From NCBI GenBank assembly GCA_964430395.1, contig CAYSGK010000003.1, positions 1 to 29,496 on the forward strand: a DNA stretch of 29,496 nt, given 5' to 3'. This document shows positions 21,622 to 29,496 of the stretch, piece by piece. Made by a program: the position numbers and the translations under genes. The notes below the pieces were generated by a model, which had not been told where the DNA came from, ran no database searches, and was given only the letters and a program-made list of their open reading frames with translations. How positions within the stretch are numbered: position 1 is the stretch's first letter; each line of letters opens with the position of its first letter. This DNA is from an uncultured Methylophaga sp. (GTDB lineage: Bacteria; Pseudomonadota; Gammaproteobacteria; Nitrosococcales; Methylophagaceae).

Positions 21622-21711
21622 CAAGACTATGTTTGAACGTAGATCTGACGGATTATAGGCTTAACTAAGTCGTTACAATAGTTTAATCATAATTAATTAA
21701 AGGATAAAAAT

Positions 21712-22143
21712 ATGAATATTAAAGCGGGTGTAATTTCAGGCTTCATAGCAACGGTTATTTTATCAATATTAATGATAGTCAAAGCCAAGATGGGCATCAT
21801 GCCTGAACTCAATGCCATAAAAATGCTTGCTGGGATGATGCATGCACCGCTCATTATGGGTTGGGTTGCACATTTTATGATAGGTACTGTTCTTTGGGGT
21901 GTATTATTTGCTTTGCTGGTTAATAAATTACCTGGAAGCATTATGACTAGTGCCATTATTTTTTCTATTGGCGCATGGTTTTTAATGATGATAGGTCCTA
22001 TGCCAATGGCAGGCGCTGGTTTATTTGGTCTACATATGGGAATGATGGCACCCATGGCAACACTGATATTGCATATTATCTGGGGTATTGTGTTAGGCCT
22101 TAGTTTCCAAAAGCTTGCTAATTATAGGATTAAATTGGAATAA
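21712..22143 (+). CDS. Met-rich four-helix membrane protein, DUF6789-like
   Basis: AAGGA Shine-Dalgarno; GFIAT, GWVAHFMIG, PMPMAGAGLFG, LHIIWGIVLG; 18 Met in 143 aa. Confidence 0.7.
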   Translation: MNIKAGVISGFIATVILSILMIVKAKMGIMPELNAIKMLAGMMHAPLIMGWVAHFMIGTVLWGVLFALLVNKLPGSIMTSAIIFSIGAWFLMMIGPMPMAGAGLFGLHMGMMAPMATLILHIIWGIVLGLSFQKLANYRIKLE

Positions 22144-23506
22144 TGATCTGAAACTGTGTTTTTGATTCATCTGAGGTGACGTGAATACTTCCTCCATGGG
22201 CTTCAGCGATAGATTTAGTTATAGCTAAGCCCAGCCCCGTCCCTTCGCTGGTGCGTTGCCGTGATGGATCAATACGGTAGAAGCGATCAAATAATTTTGG
22301 TAGATGCTCTGAAAGAATGGGTTCTCCGGGGTTTTGAACAATAATGCTGACACAGTTGTTGATACGGTCAAGTGTTATGGTGACTGTCTGCCCTTTGGGA
22401 GTGTGTCGTATTGCATTGGAGAGTAGATTGCTGAGCGCCCGCCGTATCATTAAGCGGTTACAATGAAGCTGAAGTTTTCCCTTCACTGTTAGTGAAACCT
22501 TATTGTCTTCAGCCCAGGCTTCATAATAATCAAATAAACTTTGTACTTCTTGATATAAATCGACATCTTTCATTTCAATCGGATTAATTTTATTGTCCGT
22601 TTTAGCCAAAAATAGCATATCTGCAATCATCTGAGATAATCGTTCAAATTCTTCCATATTGGAATAAAGAACTTCTAAATATTCTTTATTACTACGTGTT
22701 CGAGAAAGGGCTACTTGTGTCTGAGTCATTAAATTAGTAACCGGTGTGCGTAATTCGTGGGCAATATCATCAGAAAAATGAGATAGCCGGTCAAATGCTT
22801 TATCTAATCGTTTGAGTAAATCATTAAATGATCGGATTAAATCTGACAATTCACTGGGAACAGTCTCGGGATCAAGTCTTGTGCTGAGTTCGTTACTGCT
22901 AATATGACCGAGTTGATTAATAATTTGGCGTAGTGGACGATGACCATAATGAACAGCCATCCAACTCATGAGACTCATTACCACGATACTGGAAATAACC
23001 ATAAGCCATAGAATAAATCGAAAATTATTTAAGAAGGTATGATGGAAATCGGTAGAAATGGCGATGATGATGGTATACGGTGTTGCATTATTTGTTAGAA
23101 TTTGTTCTGCAAAAATACGGTAATGATTCTTGCCATTTTTCCAGTGTTTTACCAGAGTTTGATTTGGGGATTTAAAATTTGGTAAATCAGGCAAACTTTT
23201 TTTAAACTCAAGGCTACTATAGAGTACGTTACCCCTATCATTAATAACCTTAAGCAAGGGATGGTGATGGCCAATCAAAATATCATCAAAGCGTTGCTGA
23301 AGTAATGGCAAATCCTGTTCTGACTGCAATGTCTGAAGCGGTTTTTTCACAGCCTGTGCGATGAGTTTTAATTCTTTAATATCACCTAATTCAAAGTGAT
23401 TTTCCATTGAATTCTCAATGATCCAACCAAATGACAGTAAAACCAAGGTGGCAACCGTGCTGAATAATAAGGTAAGCCGTAAGGTAAGAGAGGTTGGTTG
23501 CTTCAT
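22130..23506 (-). CDS. cusS: Copper sensor histidine kinase CusS/CopS
   Basis: SLTLRLTLLF, periplasmic NHF and DFHH (equivalent to the E. coli CusS His ligands), H-box FSDDIAHELRTP, LSNAIRH, FDRFYRID, GTGLGLAI. Confidence 0.93.
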   Translation of the reverse strand: MKQPTSLTLRLTLLFSTVATLVLLSFGWIIENSMENHFELGDIKELKLIAQAVKKPLQTLQSEQDLPLLQQRFDDILIGHHHPLLKVINDRGNVLYSSLEFKKSLPDLPNFKSPNQTLVKHWKNGKNHYRIFAEQILTNNATPYTIIIAISTDFHHTFLNNFRFILWLMVISSIVVMSLMSWMAVHYGHRPLRQIINQLGHISSNELSTRLDPETVPSELSDLIRSFNDLLKRLDKAFDRLSHFSDDIAHELRTPVTNLMTQTQVALSRTRSNKEYLEVLYSNMEEFERLSQMIADMLFLAKTDNKINPIEMKDVDLYQEVQSLFDYYEAWAEDNKVSLTVKGKLQLHCNRLMIRRALSNLLSNAIRHTPKGQTVTITLDRINNCVSIIVQNPGEPILSEHLPKLFDRFYRIDPSRQRTSEGTGLGLAITKSIAEAHGGSIHVTSDESKTQFQIIIPI

Positions 23507-23515
23507 TGTACGAAA

Positions 23516-24193
23516 TTATTCAGATATATCAAGCATATAACCCATACCACGAATAGTATGAATAAGTTTAGGGTTAAAATTATCATCAATTTTAGAACGC
23601 AAACGTCGAATAGCGACATCAATGACATTAGTATCGCTATCAAAATTCATATCCCAAATTTGTGAAGCAATGAGCGAGCGAGGCAAGACTTCACCTTTAT
23701 GACGGATAAGTAGTTCCAATAGCAAGAATTCTTTAGCAGTCAATTTTATTCGTTGCTGAGCTCTAATTACGCGATGCCGCGTTAAATCCAATTCTAAATC
23801 TGCAATACTAAGAATATGATCATTTGGTATCTGAATACCACGGCGTATTATGGTTCGTACTCGTGCCAATAATTCAGAAAAAGCAAAGGGTTTAACCAAA
23901 TAATCATCAGCGCCTAATTCAAGGCCTTTAACTTTATCTTCGATGCTATCTCGAGCGGTAAGAAATAATACAGGCATGGTTTTATCAGCTTCCCGTAATG
24001 ATTTTAATATATGCCAGCCATCTAAATCAGGTAACATGACATCTAATATCACTAGATCATAAGGTTCTGTCATAGCATGATGATAACCATCCAGGCCGTT
24101 ATTAACGAGATCAACAACGAAGCCCGCTTCACTGAGGCCTTGTTTAAGATAATTACCGGTTTTAGCCTCATCTTCAACTATGAGTAACTTCAT
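23516..24193 (-). CDS. cusR: Copper response regulator CusR/CopR (OmpR family)
   Basis: [60 protein letters not shown]. Confidence 0.95.
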
Positions 24194-24280: not shown

Positions 24281-24398
24281 GAGACCTTTGCACGAGTCGT
24301 CTTTAGATCCTAGCGGTTACATCGTTTCGCCATGCCTGCGTTAAAAATAGTTTCAAAATGCTCATTTACACCAGTAAACTGCGCTTTAAAAACTATTT
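24281..24398. mobile_element. Truncated palindromic MITE-like remnant
   Basis: Starts GAGACCTTTGCA (recalled as an IS5/IS1106-type terminus); nested dyad AAATAGTTT...TTTAC-acca-GTAAA...AAACTATTT; no matching right end. Confidence 0.45.
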
Positions 24399-24445
24399 GG
24401 GGCTGTCCCAGATAACACATAAAATGTATTATCGAGGGCAGCCTC
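24399..24445. mobile_element. Empty 47-bp element made of two inverted termini, IS1016/IS1595-like
   Basis: GGGGCTGTCCCAGATAAC ... ATTATCGAGGGCAGCCTC imperfect inverted repeat; resembles the IS1016-group end GGGGCTGTCCTAGATAAC as recalled. Confidence 0.45.
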
Positions 24446-24488
24446 AAAAAAAATAAACGAAAAGAAAAAGGTCAAATCAGTATGGAAA

Positions 24489-24597
24489 ATTACTGGTGAC
24501 CATTGAAAGTACAGTTTTTACCTACCCGTCACTACCGCTAAAAACATGCGGAAGTGACAAAAAATATAAAGCTGCATCTTCATTGATTATGGATATG
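24489..24597. mobile_element. Miniature element, copy 4 (109 bp, single collapsed REP)
   Basis: Left ...GTGACCATTGAAAGTACAG, hairpin GTCACT-A-CCGC-taaaaacat-GCGG-A-AGTGAC (24528-24558), right CTGCATCTTCATTGATTATGGATATG. Confidence 0.75.
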
Positions 24598-24634
24598 AGT
24601 AGATACAGCAATCCATAAATTCGTTACTTCTTTT

Positions 24635-24660
24635 TTTTCATTACAAAATTGTAATGAAAA
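24635..24660. promoter_or_regulatory. CusR/CopR box upstream of copAB
   Basis: Perfect dyad TTTTCATTACAA-AA-TTGTAATGAAAA; core ATTACAA-N2-TTGTAAT matches the E. coli CusR box ATGACAA-N2-TTGTCAT. Confidence 0.85.
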
Positions 24661-24775
24661 GGTCACAAAGCAGACAGGGAATATTCTTTAATATTTAACC
24701 ACTTCAATTATTTGGCGTAGTTTTGCCAGCAATGGTCAGGTGCAGCAACAAACTTACATAGCTAGAGGTGTAATC

Positions 24776-26617
24776 ATGAAAAATAAATTTCCAACTAAAC
24801 TAACCCGACGGCAGTTTGTTCGAGGAATGGCTGTATCCTCCATCGCTGCTGCAATTGCCAGTTATTTACCAACAACTTTTGCTTCCGAAAATTCGGAGGC
24901 AGCTGTGCAAAATGCAAACCCTCAAGTGCCTATTCTCCAGGGCAATCAATTTGATCTGACTATTTCTGAAAAAACAGTAAACATAACAGGGTCACCTGCC
25001 AGATCTACCGTGGTCAATGACTCCCTTTCGGGACCGACACTGATTTGGCATGAAGGCGATACTGTCACCATACGGGTCACCAATAACCTGTCTGTCTCCA
25101 GTTCAATTCACTGGCACGGAATTATCCTGCCTTTTACCATGGATGGCGTTCCCGGATTTAGTTATGAGGGCATTGCGCCAGGCGAAACTTATACTTATCA
25201 ATTCACTGTCCAGCAACATGGCACCTATTGGTATCATAGTCATTCTGCTTATCAGGAACAAACAGGCCTTTATGGTGCTATCGTTATCTTACCTAAACAG
25301 GCAGAGCCTATTGAGTATGATAAGGATTATATTGTTCAACTTTCAGACTGGTCTGATACCCCGCCAGAAACGATTTATGCCAATTTAAAAAAATCGCCCG
25401 ATTATTATAATTACGTGCAAAGAACCGTTGCTGATTTTACAAATGAAGTAAAAAGAGAAGACCTTTCTACAGCATGGGGTAAACGCAAAATGTGGAATCA
25501 AATGCGGATGTCTAATCGCGATTTGTCCGATGTTTCAGGTGCCACCTATACTTTTTTAATGAATGGCTTATCGCCCAATGCCCATTGGCGCGCCATCGTA
25601 AACAGTGGGCAAAAAGTTCGATTAAGGTTTATTAACAGTTCGGCGATGACCTTTTTTGATATTCGCATACCCGGCTTAAAAATGACCGTTATCGCTGCCG
25701 ACGGTAATCTGATACAAGCTATAGAAGTTGATGAGTTTCGTATCGGGGTTGCCGAAACCTATGATGTTCTGGTCGAACCCGATACAGACAGTCAGCCTTA
25801 CGCCATTTTTGCTCAAGCTATCGATCGAAGTGGTTTTGCATTGGGGTCGTTAACCAACGATGCATCAATACTGGCTGTTCCGCCGAAGATGGATCCAGTG
25901 CCCAATCTCACTATGGTCGATATGGGAATGGCGATGGGAATGGATATGAGTAAGGGAATGGACATGAACAAAGGGATGAACATGAACAAGGGAATGGACA
26001 TGAACATGAACAAAGGGATGGACATGAACAAGGGGATGGATATGAGTATGAAGCATGATACTGATTCAGTAGCCATCAATTTCAACCCTAAACTACCCCA
26101 GATGGAGGTGCCTAGAAAAACAGGATACCAAAGCACTATGCGGGCTTCAAATCCGCAGTATCGTTTAAATGATCCTGGAGCCGGTCTTAGGGACAACGGT
26201 AGAAAAGTGTTGACTTATGCCGACATCAAAAACCTGTACGCGACTCAATCTATGCCTACACCGACAAAGGAGCTGGTATTGCATCTAACCGGAAATATGG
26301 AGCGCTATATGTGGTCTATCGATGGCATTCCATTTGATGAAGCCCCGCCATTACAATTTAAGTACGGAGAGAGAATTCGCATCACTTTTATTAATGACAC
26401 CATGATGAATCACCCTATGCATTTACACGGACTCTGGAGTGATTTAGAGACAGGTGATGAAAATCATATCCCGAGGAAGCATACCGTCGTGGTTCAACCA
26501 GGCGCCAAAATCAGTTTTCGCGTCACCATGAATGCGTTGGGTGATTGGCCTTTCCATTGTCATATGCTCTATCACATGATGGGCATGTTCCGCCGTGTAC
26601 AAATTCGTAATATGTAA
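24776..26617 (+). CDS. copA: Periplasmic multicopper oxidase, CopA/PcoA family (probable ATG start 24776)
   Basis: AGAGG Shine-Dalgarno; Tat motif TRRQFV; HWHG, WYHSH, HPMHLHG, HCHMLYHM; Met-rich insert. This is the oxidase CopA, not the P-type ATPase. Confidence 0.95.
   Translation: MKNKFPTKLTRRQFVRGMAVSSIAAAIASYLPTTFASENSEAAVQNANPQVPILQGNQFDLTISEKTVNITGSPARSTVVNDSLSGPTLIWHEGDTVTIRVTNNLSVSSSIHWHGIILPFTMDGVPGFSYEGIAPGETYTYQFTVQQHGTYWYHSHSAYQEQTGLYGAIVILPKQAEPIEYDKDYIVQLSDWSDTPPETIYANLKKSPDYYNYVQRTVADFTNEVKREDLSTAWGKRKMWNQMRMSNRDLSDVSGATYTFLMNGLSPNAHWRAIVNSGQKVRLRFINSSAMTFFDIRIPGLKMTVIAADGNLIQAIEVDEFRIGVAETYDVLVEPDTDSQPYAIFAQAIDRSGFALGSLTNDASILAVPPKMDPVPNLTMVDMGMAMGMDMSKGMDMNKGMNMNKGMDMNMNKGMDMNKGMDMSMKHDTDSVAINFNPKLPQMEVPRKTGYQSTMRASNPQYRLNDPGAGLRDNGRKVLTYADIKNLYATQSMPTPTKELVLHLTGNMERYMWSIDGIPFDEAPPLQFKYGERIRITFINDTMMNHPMHLHGLWSDLETGDENHIPRKHTVVVQPGAKISFRVTMNALGDWPFHCHMLYHMMGMFRRVQIRNM
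25937..26047 (+). repeat. In-frame 18-bp tandem repeat encoding (K)GM(D/N)M(N/S) six times
   Basis: GMDMSKGMDMNKGMNMNKGMDMNMNKGMDMNKGMDMS inside copA. Confidence 0.95.
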
Positions 26618-26639
26618 TCAAATAATTAGGAGAACCTTT

Positions 26640-27419
26640 ATGCGTAATTTACAAAGCGCCATTTTTCTGGTGAGCATAACGTTGTTGCTTTCTCTTTCTA
26701 CGTCAGTAGAGGCAGCGGAATCCTCAAAAGTATTCTCCCCGACAAAGGAGGCCGCAATGATTGCTATGACCAATCGTGCGGCCAAAAATGAACGGGATCC
26801 TTTTCTGAGCTATTTGTTACTGGACCGATTTGAGATTAGTGATCAATCAAACAATCCTGTAAGTTGGGATGCTACTGCCTGGTTGGGTCGAGACAACCAT
26901 AAGCTTTATTTTAAAAGCGAAGGTGAAACCACCTCGGGCAATACGGACTCGCAGAACAGACTGTTATACAGCCACCCTGTTGCCCCGTTTTGGGATGTCC
27001 AACTTGGGCTGGATTACGATCAAACTGATGAATATAAAAATCAAACATGGGCTACCGTCGGTTTGCAAGGACTGGCGCCGTACTTTTTTGAAACAGATAT
27101 TTATCTATTGGCTAACAATGATAATGTCGGAATCAGATTCGACGGCGACATCGATTTTTTGCTCACACAAAGACTCATCCTGACACCGCGAATGGGATTT
27201 GAAGCTTACACACAGAATCAGTCACGTTATGGCTTAGGTTCAGGTTTGTCCAGCACTGATATCGGGGTACGACTGCGCTATGAGTTCAGTCGAAACTTTG
27301 CACCGTACCTGGGTATAAAATGGCAAAATACTTATGGTTCAACGGAAGATTTTGTTAAACAAAATGGAGGAAAATCTTCTGATACAAGTTTAGTGGCTGG
27401 ATTAAGAGTTTGGTTTTAG
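26640..27419 (+). CDS. copB: Copper resistance outer membrane protein CopB/PcoB (probable ATG start 26640)
   Basis: AGGAGA Shine-Dalgarno; signal peptide; WDATAWLG...KLYFKSEGE, LQGLAPYFFE, LTQRLILTP, RLRYEFSRNFAPYLG, AGLRVWF. Confidence 0.93.
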   Translation: MRNLQSAIFLVSITLLLSLSTSVEAAESSKVFSPTKEAAMIAMTNRAAKNERDPFLSYLLLDRFEISDQSNNPVSWDATAWLGRDNHKLYFKSEGETTSGNTDSQNRLLYSHPVAPFWDVQLGLDYDQTDEYKNQTWATVGLQGLAPYFFETDIYLLANNDNVGIRFDGDIDFLLTQRLILTPRMGFEAYTQNQSRYGLGSGLSSTDIGVRLRYEFSRNFAPYLGIKWQNTYGSTEDFVKQNGGKSSDTSLVAGLRVWF

Positions 27420-27590
27420 ATGAGTCTTATCTTGGTAGAACAGGCTGAATATTGACACCGTATACATCACAAGGAGATTGACAGTGTACATTTTTGTCTT
27501 TCTGCCTTTGTGTCAGTTTGTTTGTATTTCAGGCGCTTTTTATGATTTTCATGTCAACCCAAAGTAGCGATGCCCCCTTTTCTCTATATT

Positions 27591-27616
27591 TTTTCATTAC
27601 AAAATTGTAATGAAAA
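27591..27616. promoter_or_regulatory. Second CusR/CopR box, identical to 24635-24660
   Basis: TTTTCATTACAAAATTGTAATGAAAA, inside a 64-bp direct repeat of the copAB promoter region. Confidence 0.85.
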
Positions 27617-27690
27617 GGTCACAAAATAGACAGGGAATACGCTTTAATATTTGACTTGTAAATTGAAAGTTATAGGGGGAGGAAGGTTTA

Positions 27691-28170
27691 ATGACAACAT
27701 CTGAACTATGTTATGTTTGTGGCATGAAGCCTGATGCAAGCATCCCATCACTTGAATATCACAAAATGTATTTCCACTTTTGCTCTCAGCAATGTCGGGA
27801 TACATTTATCGCTCACCCCAGTTTATATGCTGTTAAGGCAGAAAAACAACAGAAACACATTCTAAAACGCAGAATTATGACCTTGGCTGCACCATTAGAT
27901 GAAGACTCAAAGGAACTACTAAAAGCAAGTTTGGCCGAGATGATGGGAATCAAAGATGTAAGTATTGACGATGACAAAATTTCTATCAGTTATGACTTAC
28001 TACAAGTAACAAGACAGCAGATAGAAAATCGATTGGCTGAGATTGGAATAAAGCTAGGTAGTGATTGGATGGAACGTTTGCGGCGAGCTTGGGTTCAGGA
28101 CAGCGAAGAAAATGAATTAGATAACCTTGCTGCCCCTATACATTATTATCATCGACCTTCACCAAAATAG
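27691..28170 (+). CDS. YHS/TRASH domain fused to an HMA-like domain lacking CxxC
   Basis: GGAGG Shine-Dalgarno; CYVCGM...YFHFCSQQC; second half MMGIKDVSID..KISISYDLLQVTRQQIE resembles a ferredoxin-fold HMA domain. Confidence 0.75.
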   Translation: MTTSELCYVCGMKPDASIPSLEYHKMYFHFCSQQCRDTFIAHPSLYAVKAEKQQKHILKRRIMTLAAPLDEDSKELLKASLAEMMGIKDVSIDDDKISISYDLLQVTRQQIENRLAEIGIKLGSDWMERLRRAWVQDSEENELDNLAAPIHYYHRPSPK

Positions 28171-28207
28171 TAGCAAATAGAAAAATATTTCTAATTTAGG
28201 TTAACAA

Positions 28208-28741
28208 ATGAGTAAACAAGAAAAATTTAAACTATCAAAGCAAATTCAATTATTAATTCTAATTCTGGTTATTGTTGCAAGTGTAATCGGAGTCAGTGCT
28301 TGGAGTAAGGCATCTAAAAATAAGGTTGCTACAGTGCTTTCGGCGACAGAAACAGACCAAATCTTACCTGAGATTGTCGTCTATAAATCAGCTACCTGTA
28401 CCTGTTGTCATAAATGGATAACGCATCTTGAAAATGCAGGATTTATTGTGCAAGCTCATAACCGTGAAGATATGAATAGTGTTAAATCGTCACTCGGTGT
28501 AATACCTGGTTTAGCATCATGTCATACCGCCCTAATTGATGGCTATCTCATAGAAGGGCATGTGCCTGCCAATGATATTAAAAGGTTACTAGCAGAGAAG
28601 CCCAAAAATATTGTAGGTCTTACAGCACCAGGAATGCCACGGTTCTCACCTGGTATGCAAGCTGAAGGTCTCCCTGCCAAAGGTTACGACGTATTAACGT
28701 TTGATGAAAATGGTAATACACAAGTGTTTAGTCAATATTAA
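28208..28741 (+). CDS. copG: DUF411 / CopG-family periplasmic copper protein
   Basis: N-terminal hydrophobic segment, VYKSATCTCCHKWITHL, ASCHTA, IEGHVPA, PGMP..SPGM. Confidence 0.85.
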   Translation: MSKQEKFKLSKQIQLLILILVIVASVIGVSAWSKASKNKVATVLSATETDQILPEIVVYKSATCTCCHKWITHLENAGFIVQAHNREDMNSVKSSLGVIPGLASCHTALIDGYLIEGHVPANDIKRLLAEKPKNIVGLTAPGMPRFSPGMQAEGLPAKGYDVLTFDENGNTQVFSQY

Positions 28742-28771
28742 TTTAACTCATCCAAAAAAGGAATAATAATC

Positions 28772-29496
28772 ATGCCAGAAATCATCCCTAATTTTCACCC
28801 AATACTTGTGCATTTCACCATAGCGCTACTCAGTATATCAGTAGTGTTTTATGTGATCAGATTACTGTTGCCGGTAAATCATCGTTGGCGAGAGCAGTGG
28901 TTAAATATGGCAAATTGGAGTTTATGGACAGGCTGTCTGTTTGCAATTGCTACGGCCACAGCCGGCTGGTTTGCATATAACAGCGTAGCACATGATGGTC
29001 CGTCTCATGCAGCAATGACCTTGCATAGAAACTGGGCTTTACCTACCGCGACTTTATTTTTACTTCTTGGTTTATCCAGTATTAATTTGGCTAGAAAAAG
29101 AAGCTTACCGGGATTTAAGTTTATATCGGTGTCTATTATTGCAGCTATTATGCTAATGGTGACAGGTTGGCTGGGTGCTGAGGCTGTGTATCGCTATGGA
29201 TTGGGGGTAATGTCATTACCTAAAGTTGAAGCGGGGGCGGACGGTCATAATCATAGTCATGGAGCAGAACCTTCAGCAGAAACTAACTCAGACGGTCACA
29301 ATCATAGTCATGGAGCAGAACCTTCAGCAGAAACTAACCCAGATGGACATAGCCATAGTCATGAAGTAACTGCAGCTGAAATGGTAGAAAAAACGATGGG
29401 TGAAACTATGCAGCCTATGGCAGAGGAGCACGGTAACCATGTCCATGATGCTATGGAGGAAGTACCTGTTCAAGCTATGCCATCGGATGGGCATAA
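28772..29496 (+). CDS. DUF2231-like membrane protein with long His/Met/acidic tail; 3' end outside the window
   Basis: Absent from the supplied ORF track because there is no in-frame stop. AAGGA Shine-Dalgarno, ATG 28772: MPEIIPNFHPILVHFTIALL...AMTLHRNWA...TGWLGAEAVYRYGLGV then DGHNHSH repeats; frame open to the last base. Confidence 0.8.
   Translation, partial: MPEIIPNFHPILVHFTIALLSISVVFYVIRLLLPVNHRWREQWLNMANWSLWTGCLFAIATATAGWFAYNSVAHDGPSHAAMTLHRNWALPTATLFLLLGLSSINLARKRSLPGFKFISVSIIAAIMLMVTGWLGAEAVYRYGLGVMSLPKVEAGADGHNHSHGAEPSAETNSDGHNHSHGAEPSAETNPDGHSHSHEVTAAEMVEKTMGETMQPMAEEHGNHVHDAMEEVPVQAMPSDGH
29240..29362 (+). repeat. In-frame 51-bp tandem repeat (2 full copies, 49/51 identical, plus a partial third) encoding DGHNHSHGAEPSAETN(S/P)
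   Basis: Units 29240-29290, 29291-29341 and partial 29342-29362 (DGHSHSH). Confidence 0.95.

Follow-up and report, generated by a model that had tools for sequence, protein, structure and literature searches.

What do three co-oriented genes at the far end of a copper island in a Methylophaga-like bacterium do, and do two of them, encoding the copper protein CopG and a membrane protein of the family DUF2231, work as a pair across the cell envelope? The window analysed here is the whole contig C3 (29,496 bp) of a 330-contig genome. From 15.4 kb onward it carries a copper island composed of cusCBA, cusS and cusR (minus strand), copA-copB and the operon in question, YHSfd-copG-DUF2231, where YHSfd denotes a protein that joins a YHS/TRASH domain to an HMA-like fold. 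A sequence-only reading of this DNA had proposed a second CusR-controlled operon that encodes a trans-envelope copper redox or relay module. Comparison with related genomes leads us, with moderate confidence, to a different function: the three genes probably form the first half, counted from the promoter, of an accessory operon for copper efflux that a CusRS/CopRS-type system would activate. Copper efflux is a well-known kind of system, and YHSfd and DUF2231 are unstudied; a literature search for 'DUF2231' returned a single, unrelated database paper. The operon consists of the following features.

27589..27655, plus strand: promoter cassette of the YHSfd-copG-DUF2231 operon, with the box at 27596-27611 and a -10-like hexamer, TAATAT, at 27645-27650
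27691-28170, plus strand: YHSfd (YHS/TRASH domain and HMA-like fold), 159 amino acids (aa); Pfam YHS
28208-28741, plus strand: copG (DUF411), 177 aa; Pfam DUF411, 88.6 bits
28772-29494, plus strand: DUF2231 gene, 241 aa, open at the contig end; Pfam DUF2231, 62.2 bits

The intergenic gaps are short (37 bp between YHSfd and copG, 30 bp between copG and the DUF2231 gene), and no terminator-like site was found between the three genes. All the open reading frames (ORFs) were present as the sequence-only reading had described them, including the cysteines at positions 7, 10, 31 and 35 of YHSfd and His9, His14 and His85 of the DUF2231 protein. The contig end removes the last four codons of the DUF2231 gene; in another assembly the identical protein is complete (P0056) and has 245 aa.

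Is this operon under copper control? The box, ATTACAAAATTGTAAT, has the CusR/CopR-type form ATTACA-N4-TGTAAT, and the window has just two exact copies of it, one at 24640 ahead of copA and one at 27596 ahead of YHSfd. The cassettes of about 67 bp that surround the two copies share 93% identity. The copy at 24640 belongs to copA-copB, the first box-controlled operon, which lies directly upstream of the YHSfd operon and follows the genes of a heavy-metal two-component system:

22130-23506, minus strand: cusS; TIGR01386, 500 bits (cut-off 293)
23516-24193, minus strand: cusR; TIGR01387, 355 bits (cut-off 279)
24633..24699, plus strand: paralogous cassette ahead of copA-copB, with the box at 24640-24655
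24740-26617, plus strand: copA, a multicopper oxidase (MCO); Pfam Cu-oxidase, three matches; TIGR01480
26595-27419, plus strand: copB, an outer-membrane protein; Pfam CopB

The hexamer TAATAT lies 33 bp 3' of the box at 27596. No sigma-70 -35/-10 pair was detected at the YHSfd promoter cassette, as would be the case if the promoter depended on an activator. Across 2.1 Mb of related loci, 29 exact copies of the box were observed and 0.13 were expected, so that chance does not account for this palindrome. These copies adjoin cusR (13), YHSfd (8), MCO genes (5), a CMD gene (4) and cusC (3), and the CMD gene that carries the box is the head of the orthologous operon elsewhere. The same box also stands upstream of the orthologous YHSfd operons at loci L004-L010, L013, L014 and L017-L019. 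There is thus good comparative evidence that the box is a CusR/CopR-type operator, and both copies in the window are presumed targets of the CusS-CusR system. It resembles the copper-box consensus of characterised systems. With an exact box shared with copA and the cognate two-component genes close by, the proposal of a second CusR-controlled operon appears well founded.

The presence of two boxes in one window has a simple explanation. Relative to the Methylophaga loci L004 and L006, positions 24281-27587 (3.3 kb, comprising a cassette copy and copAB) are an insertion between cusR and the YHSfd operon, and this insertion brought the second cassette with it. It also explains why the box nearest to cusR is about 447 bp away here and 87 bp away in L004.

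Where does the operon lead? As had been predicted, it extends past the window, and the continuation could be read from another contig of the same genome, C171, and from three Methylophaga relatives (L004-L006). In these relatives the order is cusSR (divergent), YHSfd, copG, DUF2231, a MerR-type gene that L004 lacks, and the gene for a P1B ATPase of some 860 aa, which in L004 begins 30 bp after the DUF2231 gene. Read in reverse, C171 opens within a MerR gene, after which comes an ATPase of 780 aa, which is 84-89% identical to the downstream ATPase of L004. When C171 is aligned to L005 and L006, it begins about 300 bp beyond the end of the window.

L090:2029-4371, minus strand: downstream Cu(I) ATPase on C171

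The ATPase is of the copper type, Cu(I) P1B-1 (TIGR01511, 606 bits, cut-off 397). Its N-terminus contains a Pfam YHS match, a Cys-rich stretch and two HMBD domains, and is devoid of a CxxC-bearing HMA domain. The N-terminal Cys-rich runs are three in number and short (GCGCGH, GGCCG and HGCCGG). The MerR-type protein scored below all the equivalog cut-offs. In more distant gammaproteobacteria the operon reads (CMD), YHSfd, (P-II-like), DUF2231, MerR, (c18), ATPase, ICMT-like, and it is mostly without CopG. The core retained in these relatives is YHSfd, DUF2231, MerR and the P1B ATPase, and CopG is usually missing.

What could YHSfd contribute next to such an ATPase? The protein is composed of a YHS/TRASH domain (residues 1-47, with Cys7, Cys10, Cys31 and Cys35), an HMA-like fold (58-122), an acidic helix (126-147) and an HYYH tail. 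An AlphaFold2 model with a predicted local distance difference test score (pLDDT) of 84.5 shows a YHS hairpin with helices, a beta-alpha-beta-beta-alpha-beta unit and a long acidic helix. In a Foldseek search, the second unit matched CsoZ, CopZ and metal-binding domains of ATPases with a template modelling score (TM) of 0.87 and a root-mean-square deviation (rmsd) of 1.2-1.5 Å; the matches include CsoZ 6FF1 and CopZ 2QIF (TM 0.87, rmsd 1.3-1.5 Å). The metal-binding loop GMxCxxC is lacking, as its position is occupied by LAAPLD, residues 55-159 contain no Cys, and there is no match to Pfam HMA (PF00403). Judging by the model, the second unit is HMA-like by fold only, in agreement with the sequence-only reading, which had described an HMA-like fold without CxxC. 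No fused forms of the C-terminal domain were seen in longer proteins, which is weak evidence.

The TRASH half has retained the Cys pattern C-x2-C ... C-x3-C. In an alignment of 23 relatives Cys10, Cys31 and Cys35 are invariant, whereas Cys7 is restricted to a subgroup and is replaced by the Asp of the usual DPVC motif in the remaining relatives. The last 12 residues vary: many relatives end in x-C-C-N-R-P-P-P, and the Methylophaga proteins have I-H-Y-Y-H-R-P-S-P. This variable tail could be a second metal-binding or hand-off tail. By inspection, YHSfd has no signal peptide.

A word-indexed search found 55 relatives of YHSfd. When species-representative genomes were scanned, 125 loci came to light in Gamma-, Beta- and Zetaproteobacteria, and sulfur or iron oxidisers and methylotrophs are frequent among the carriers. 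Within 8 kb of YHSfd, at 80 loci from the same three classes, a P1B ATPase was present in 56 cases, CopG in 26 and DUF2231 in 24. The 56 ATPases frequently had an N-terminal YHS motif (45) and HMBD (41), and in a single case a CxxC-HMA domain. This neighbourhood has a precedent in Archaea, where the TRASH metallochaperone CopM is co-transcribed with CopA in the copTMA clusters of Sulfolobus (PMC3595675). Taken together, the ATPase neighbourhood, which is the best indication of function, and the archaeal precedent suggest that YHSfd is probably a cytoplasmic copper donor, and possibly a regulator, of HMA-less ATPases. Of the earlier claim that the TRASH protein handles cytoplasmic copper, a predicted cytoplasmic location and a link to copper can be upheld.

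Alternatively, YHSfd could be no chaperone at all. It might sense copper and regulate or inhibit the ATPase or another partner, or it might be an adaptor that is stabilised by zinc and transfers no metal. YHS domains are probable copper-sensor modules in other proteins (PMC4626032), the HMA-like domain has lost its metal site and resembles cryptic, interaction-only HMA domains, for example that of ATP7A (7LU8), and Cys7 is not invariant. However, YHSfd is found together with ATPases that lack HMA and bear YHS, and CopM shows that a TRASH protein can be a chaperone (PMC3595675). Both observations are still compatible with a regulatory role, and we consider a YHSfd that does not deliver copper to be unlikely.

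The DUF2231 protein (PF09990, 62.2 bits against a cut-off of 26.4) presents the question of what a small membrane protein does beside an efflux ATPase. Its AlphaFold2 model consists of four helices (residues 9-32, 40-71, 76-108 and 115-142) with a core pLDDT above 90 and a disordered tail. The mean number of Lys and Arg residues is 1.16 and 1.46 in loops 1 and 3, respectively, and 0.04 in the N-terminus and loop 2. According to the positive-inside rule, the N-terminus, loop 2 and the tail should thus face the periplasm. Among 74 representatives His9, His74 and Met82 are invariant, and His14, Asp75, His79, His85 and Glu137 are nearly so. The four-helix core and the N-terminal motif, HPxxVHF, are shared with other DUF2231 subfamilies, among them forms fused to cytochrome c, whose contexts are respiratory or redox. 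The subfamily described here carries H74-D-x3-H-x2-M-x2-H together with His tails and is encoded in copper islands. Sixteen positions that are at least 90% conserved fall into the periplasmic halves of the helices and one into the cytoplasmic halves, and all conserved residues of the ligand type (five His, one Met, Asp and Glu) are on the periplasmic side.

The His-rich tail is a property of the family. It contains 10-25% His, starts with GxGHxHxH, ends with HxH and is highly variable in length. In the window, a part of it is built of repeats:

29240..29363, plus strand: 51-bp tandem repeat (2.4 copies) in the DUF2231 tail, encoding DGHNHSHGAEPSAETN units

The repeat ends 133 bp short of the contig end. 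The number of repeats varies, with close relatives being 212-247 aa and wider relatives 170-409 aa long. A natural fusion, the 593-aa metagenomic representative P0296, continues from the DUF2231 domain through a His-rich linker into HMBD and a CusB-type adaptor (HlyD_D23), and other relatives carry a SnoaL/DUF4440 or a Metal_resist domain after the tail. As both HMBD with CusB and Metal_resist are periplasmic, these fusions support a periplasmic tail independently of the charge distribution. The His residues are accompanied by an invariant Met, conservation is one-sided, and His tails and fusions to metal-handling domains occur; these four features speak for a periplasm-facing copper site with a hand-off role, and against a relay of electrons or ions through the membrane. 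The comparison as a whole points to a membrane-tethered protein that binds copper in the periplasm or hands it on, rather than to a trans-membrane heme relay.

Relatives of DUF2231 are numerous (1,199 word-indexed matches, and 1,086 cluster representatives at an expectation value (E) of at most 0.001), and members of the subfamily were matched in 55 of 400 evenly sampled Gammaproteobacteria. Neighbourhoods were counted at 60 DUF2231-anchored places in 54 sampled genomes with a radius of 8 kb. CusA was present at 31 of the 60 places, an MCO at 29, a P1B ATPase at 20, CopB at 14, YHSfd at 6 and CopG at 3. The commonest direct neighbours were CopB, MCO, CusA, a P-II-like gene and the family c18; no recurrent DOMON/EB_dh partner was seen among the unlabelled neighbours of the copper-island subfamily. 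On conjugative plasmids of Legionella, a DUF2231 gene annotated by its family name only lies directly upstream of an unusually large MCO (about 960-1030 aa). In L. pneumophila pH3-D-14 (L176) and on plasmid II of L. fallonii (L177), a resistance-nodulation-division (RND) efflux system and an ICMT-like gene accompany this DUF2231-MCO pair. These counts support the view that DUF2231 is a general copper-island gene.

The same counts bear on the supposed partnership with CopG. The full YHSfd-copG-DUF2231 block is present in 4 of 40 Methylophaga species genomes, and in others DUF2231 and copG are matched singly and apart. A failure of the three families to co-occur had been named beforehand as refuting the redox or relay module; DUF2231 and CopG do not co-occur, and hence a dedicated DUF2231-CopG module fails. 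In such a module, DUF2231 would bind heme b (or copper) through His ligands and act as a membrane redox component, with CopG in the periplasm as its partner in electron exchange. Five conserved His and one Met would be able to ligate heme, Foldseek matched the protein best, albeit weakly, to the heme b metalloreductase STEAP1 (E 0.04, TM 0.40), and the structural neighbours in the Atlas include CcsB, Ferric_reduct and cytochrome c fusions (TM 0.62-0.74), which are leads only. A c-type cytochrome gene on the same strand is found within 4 kb at 7 of the 60 places. CopG itself reportedly has no known physiological redox partner. However, CopG is near DUF2231 at only three places, and the conserved His residues are all in the periplasmic half of the protein with none in the cytoplasmic half, which argues against a relay through the membrane. 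A single heme on the periplasmic side is possible, but a dedicated heme b partner of CopG seems to us very improbable. With DUF2231 unsupported in this role, the redox partner of CopG should be searched for elsewhere.

Could DUF2231 instead be a small CopD-like conduit, an oligomer of which moves periplasmic copper inward to a cytoplasmic sensor or to the ATPase? Its His tail would then gather copper in the manner of CopC. DUF2231 often stands right after copB (8 direct adjacencies), which is the position of copCD in classical cop operons, and one structural neighbour in the Atlas is annotated CopD/UPF0093 (TM 0.67-0.74, again a lead only). The His/Met cluster may also be likened to the selectivity sites of copper transporters. 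On the other hand, each of the four helices is poorly conserved in its cytoplasmic half, where no conserved His, Met or Cys occurs, comparison with the UPF0093/HemJ profile in hhalign gave a probability of 0.15%, and the fusion to CusB points to transfer within the periplasm. We regard an inward conduit as quite improbable and continue to favour a periplasmic copper-binding or hand-off protein. As between heme and copper, the fold and profile searches are neutral: a profile search of the PDB with DUF2231 gave no match, the fold searches returned generic four-helix bundles only, and a feature search of the Atlas yielded no usable match.

The middle gene of the operon raises less doubt. Its product matches DUF411 (PF04214) with 88.6 bits against a cut-off of 27, and residues 56-177 align to the structure of Pseudomonas aeruginosa CopG (6WIS) with an E of 2.6e-27. 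The C64-T-C66-C67 (CxCC) motif, the SCHT motif and the Met motifs PGMP..SPGM of 6WIS are all retained, and the N-terminus is hydrophobic and resembles a membrane anchor or signal. By sequence, the protein is a true CopG and an ordinary member of its family, as had been assigned earlier. Elsewhere in the same genome, contig C184 contains a second, diverged copG-like stretch (positions 720-833), which has 69% DNA identity over 114 bp.

What the analysis shows is the order of the genes, a conserved box, the folds, a topology signal and the neighbourhood statistics; from these we infer how copper might be bound and transferred at each step. YHSfd would bind cytoplasmic Cu(I) via its TRASH cysteines, dock on the ATPase via the degenerate HMA fold and the acidic C-terminal helix, and hand the copper over. 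In this way, it would serve HMA-less ATPases as CopZ serves HMA-bearing ones. The ATPase would then pump Cu(I) into the periplasm, where the outer-leaflet site of DUF2231, with its five His, Met, Asp and Glu, and the disordered His-rich tail could capture it. DUF2231 might either hold this copper or pass it on to whatever periplasmic system is present in the island, be it CopG, the CopA oxidase with CopB, or CusCBA. CopG would presumably act as it does in Pseudomonas, namely as a periplasmic copper-cluster redox protein.

Several points weigh against this account of an efflux operon. The match of YHSfd to Pfam YHS (PF04945; E 8.9e-7, 29.3 bits) is just under the cut-off of 30.3, while many of its homologs have a precomputed PF04945 match, and the TRASH cysteines could hold a structural zinc. 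The control group for the comparison of YHS-type ATPases was small (14). The join of C3 and C171 is deduced from synteny and is not an assembled sequence. Furthermore, since a MerR gene separates the ATPase from DUF2231, the ATPase may have its own promoter, which makes co-transcription uncertain. Finally, the neighbourhood counts come from related and non-independent genomes and were made with our own ORF calls (all ORFs) and hidden Markov models.

To our knowledge, delivery of Cu(I) to P1B ATPases and its exit from them have been worked out only for CopZ/HMA systems and CusF. Many environmental proteobacteria have ATPases with YHS/HMBD N-termini and without a CopZ-type domain, for which the donors and acceptors are not known. 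YHSfd and DUF2231 are two testable candidates with a strong genomic context, as an ATPase lies within 8 kb of YHSfd in 70% of the loci. A bolder reading is that the two proteins form a parallel relay made without the textbook parts. The fusion of TRASH with a dead HMA would replace CopZ for the YHS/HMBD ATPases, and DUF2231 would be the periplasmic acceptor at the exit of the pump, distributing copper to CopG, the multicopper oxidase or CusB. Taken jointly, these propositions are possible but on the whole doubtful. If they held, two new classes of copper-trafficking proteins would be present in about 1 in 7 of the sampled gammaproteobacterial genomes. The host is a marine methylotroph, and the relevance of the locus lies in the biology of metal homeostasis and not in medicine.

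A number of neighbouring genes deserve mention. The wider operon of distant gammaproteobacteria has a recurrent and unstudied P-II-like gene (108 aa) between YHSfd and DUF2231, as well as two recurrent neighbours, c18 (about 170 aa) and c24 (about 155 aa), that have no Pfam match. Its ATPase is followed by an ICMT/PEMT-like membrane protein and then by a small YHS protein and DUF5676. Coordinates of these recurrent unstudied neighbours are L007:10483-10809, L007:12187-12714, L008:8438-8899 and L007:15302-15964. In the window itself, a 143-aa ORF without an NCBIfam match (21712-22143) stands right after cusA and is overlapped by a 120-aa ORF on the opposite strand (21693-22055), so that it is ambiguous which of them is the real gene.

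How does this operon compare with known copper systems? As in the CusRS, CopRS and PcoRS regulons, the TIGR01387/TIGR01386 pair diverges from box-bearing promoters, and in relatives the same box is found ahead of cusR, cusC, copA and the YHSfd operon. The difference is that the box cassette has been duplicated in the present genome through the copAB insertion. The CopG of the window is similar to that of P. aeruginosa (6WIS/6WJE) in that the whole domain can be aligned and the protein is predicted to be exported, and here it is encoded in a copper island adjoining a P1B ATPase; its N-terminal anchor, however, is longer.

YHSfd is, like CopZ/CsoZ and CopM, a small and presumably cytoplasmic protein encoded with a copper P1B ATPase. 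Its C-terminal half has a predicted CopZ-like fold (TM 0.87), and its N-terminal half has CopM-like TRASH cysteines. It differs from all three in that the two modules are fused, the HMA unit is without CxxC, and there is an additional acidic helix as well as a tail with CC or HYYH. It represents a bacterial family that is unstudied and that appears to be under a two-component system.

DUF2231 is comparable to CusF, CopC, PcoE/SilE and the N-terminus of CusB in that its His/Met ligands and a disordered His-rich segment would face the periplasm. Its gene lies next to those for Cus, CopAB or an ATPase, and one relative has the domain joined to HMBD and CusB. However, whereas CusF, CopC and PcoE/SilE-type binders are soluble beta-barrels or helical peptides, DUF2231 has no sequence relation to them and is predicted to be an integral four-helix protein, the conserved site of which lies inside the outer leaflet of the membrane.

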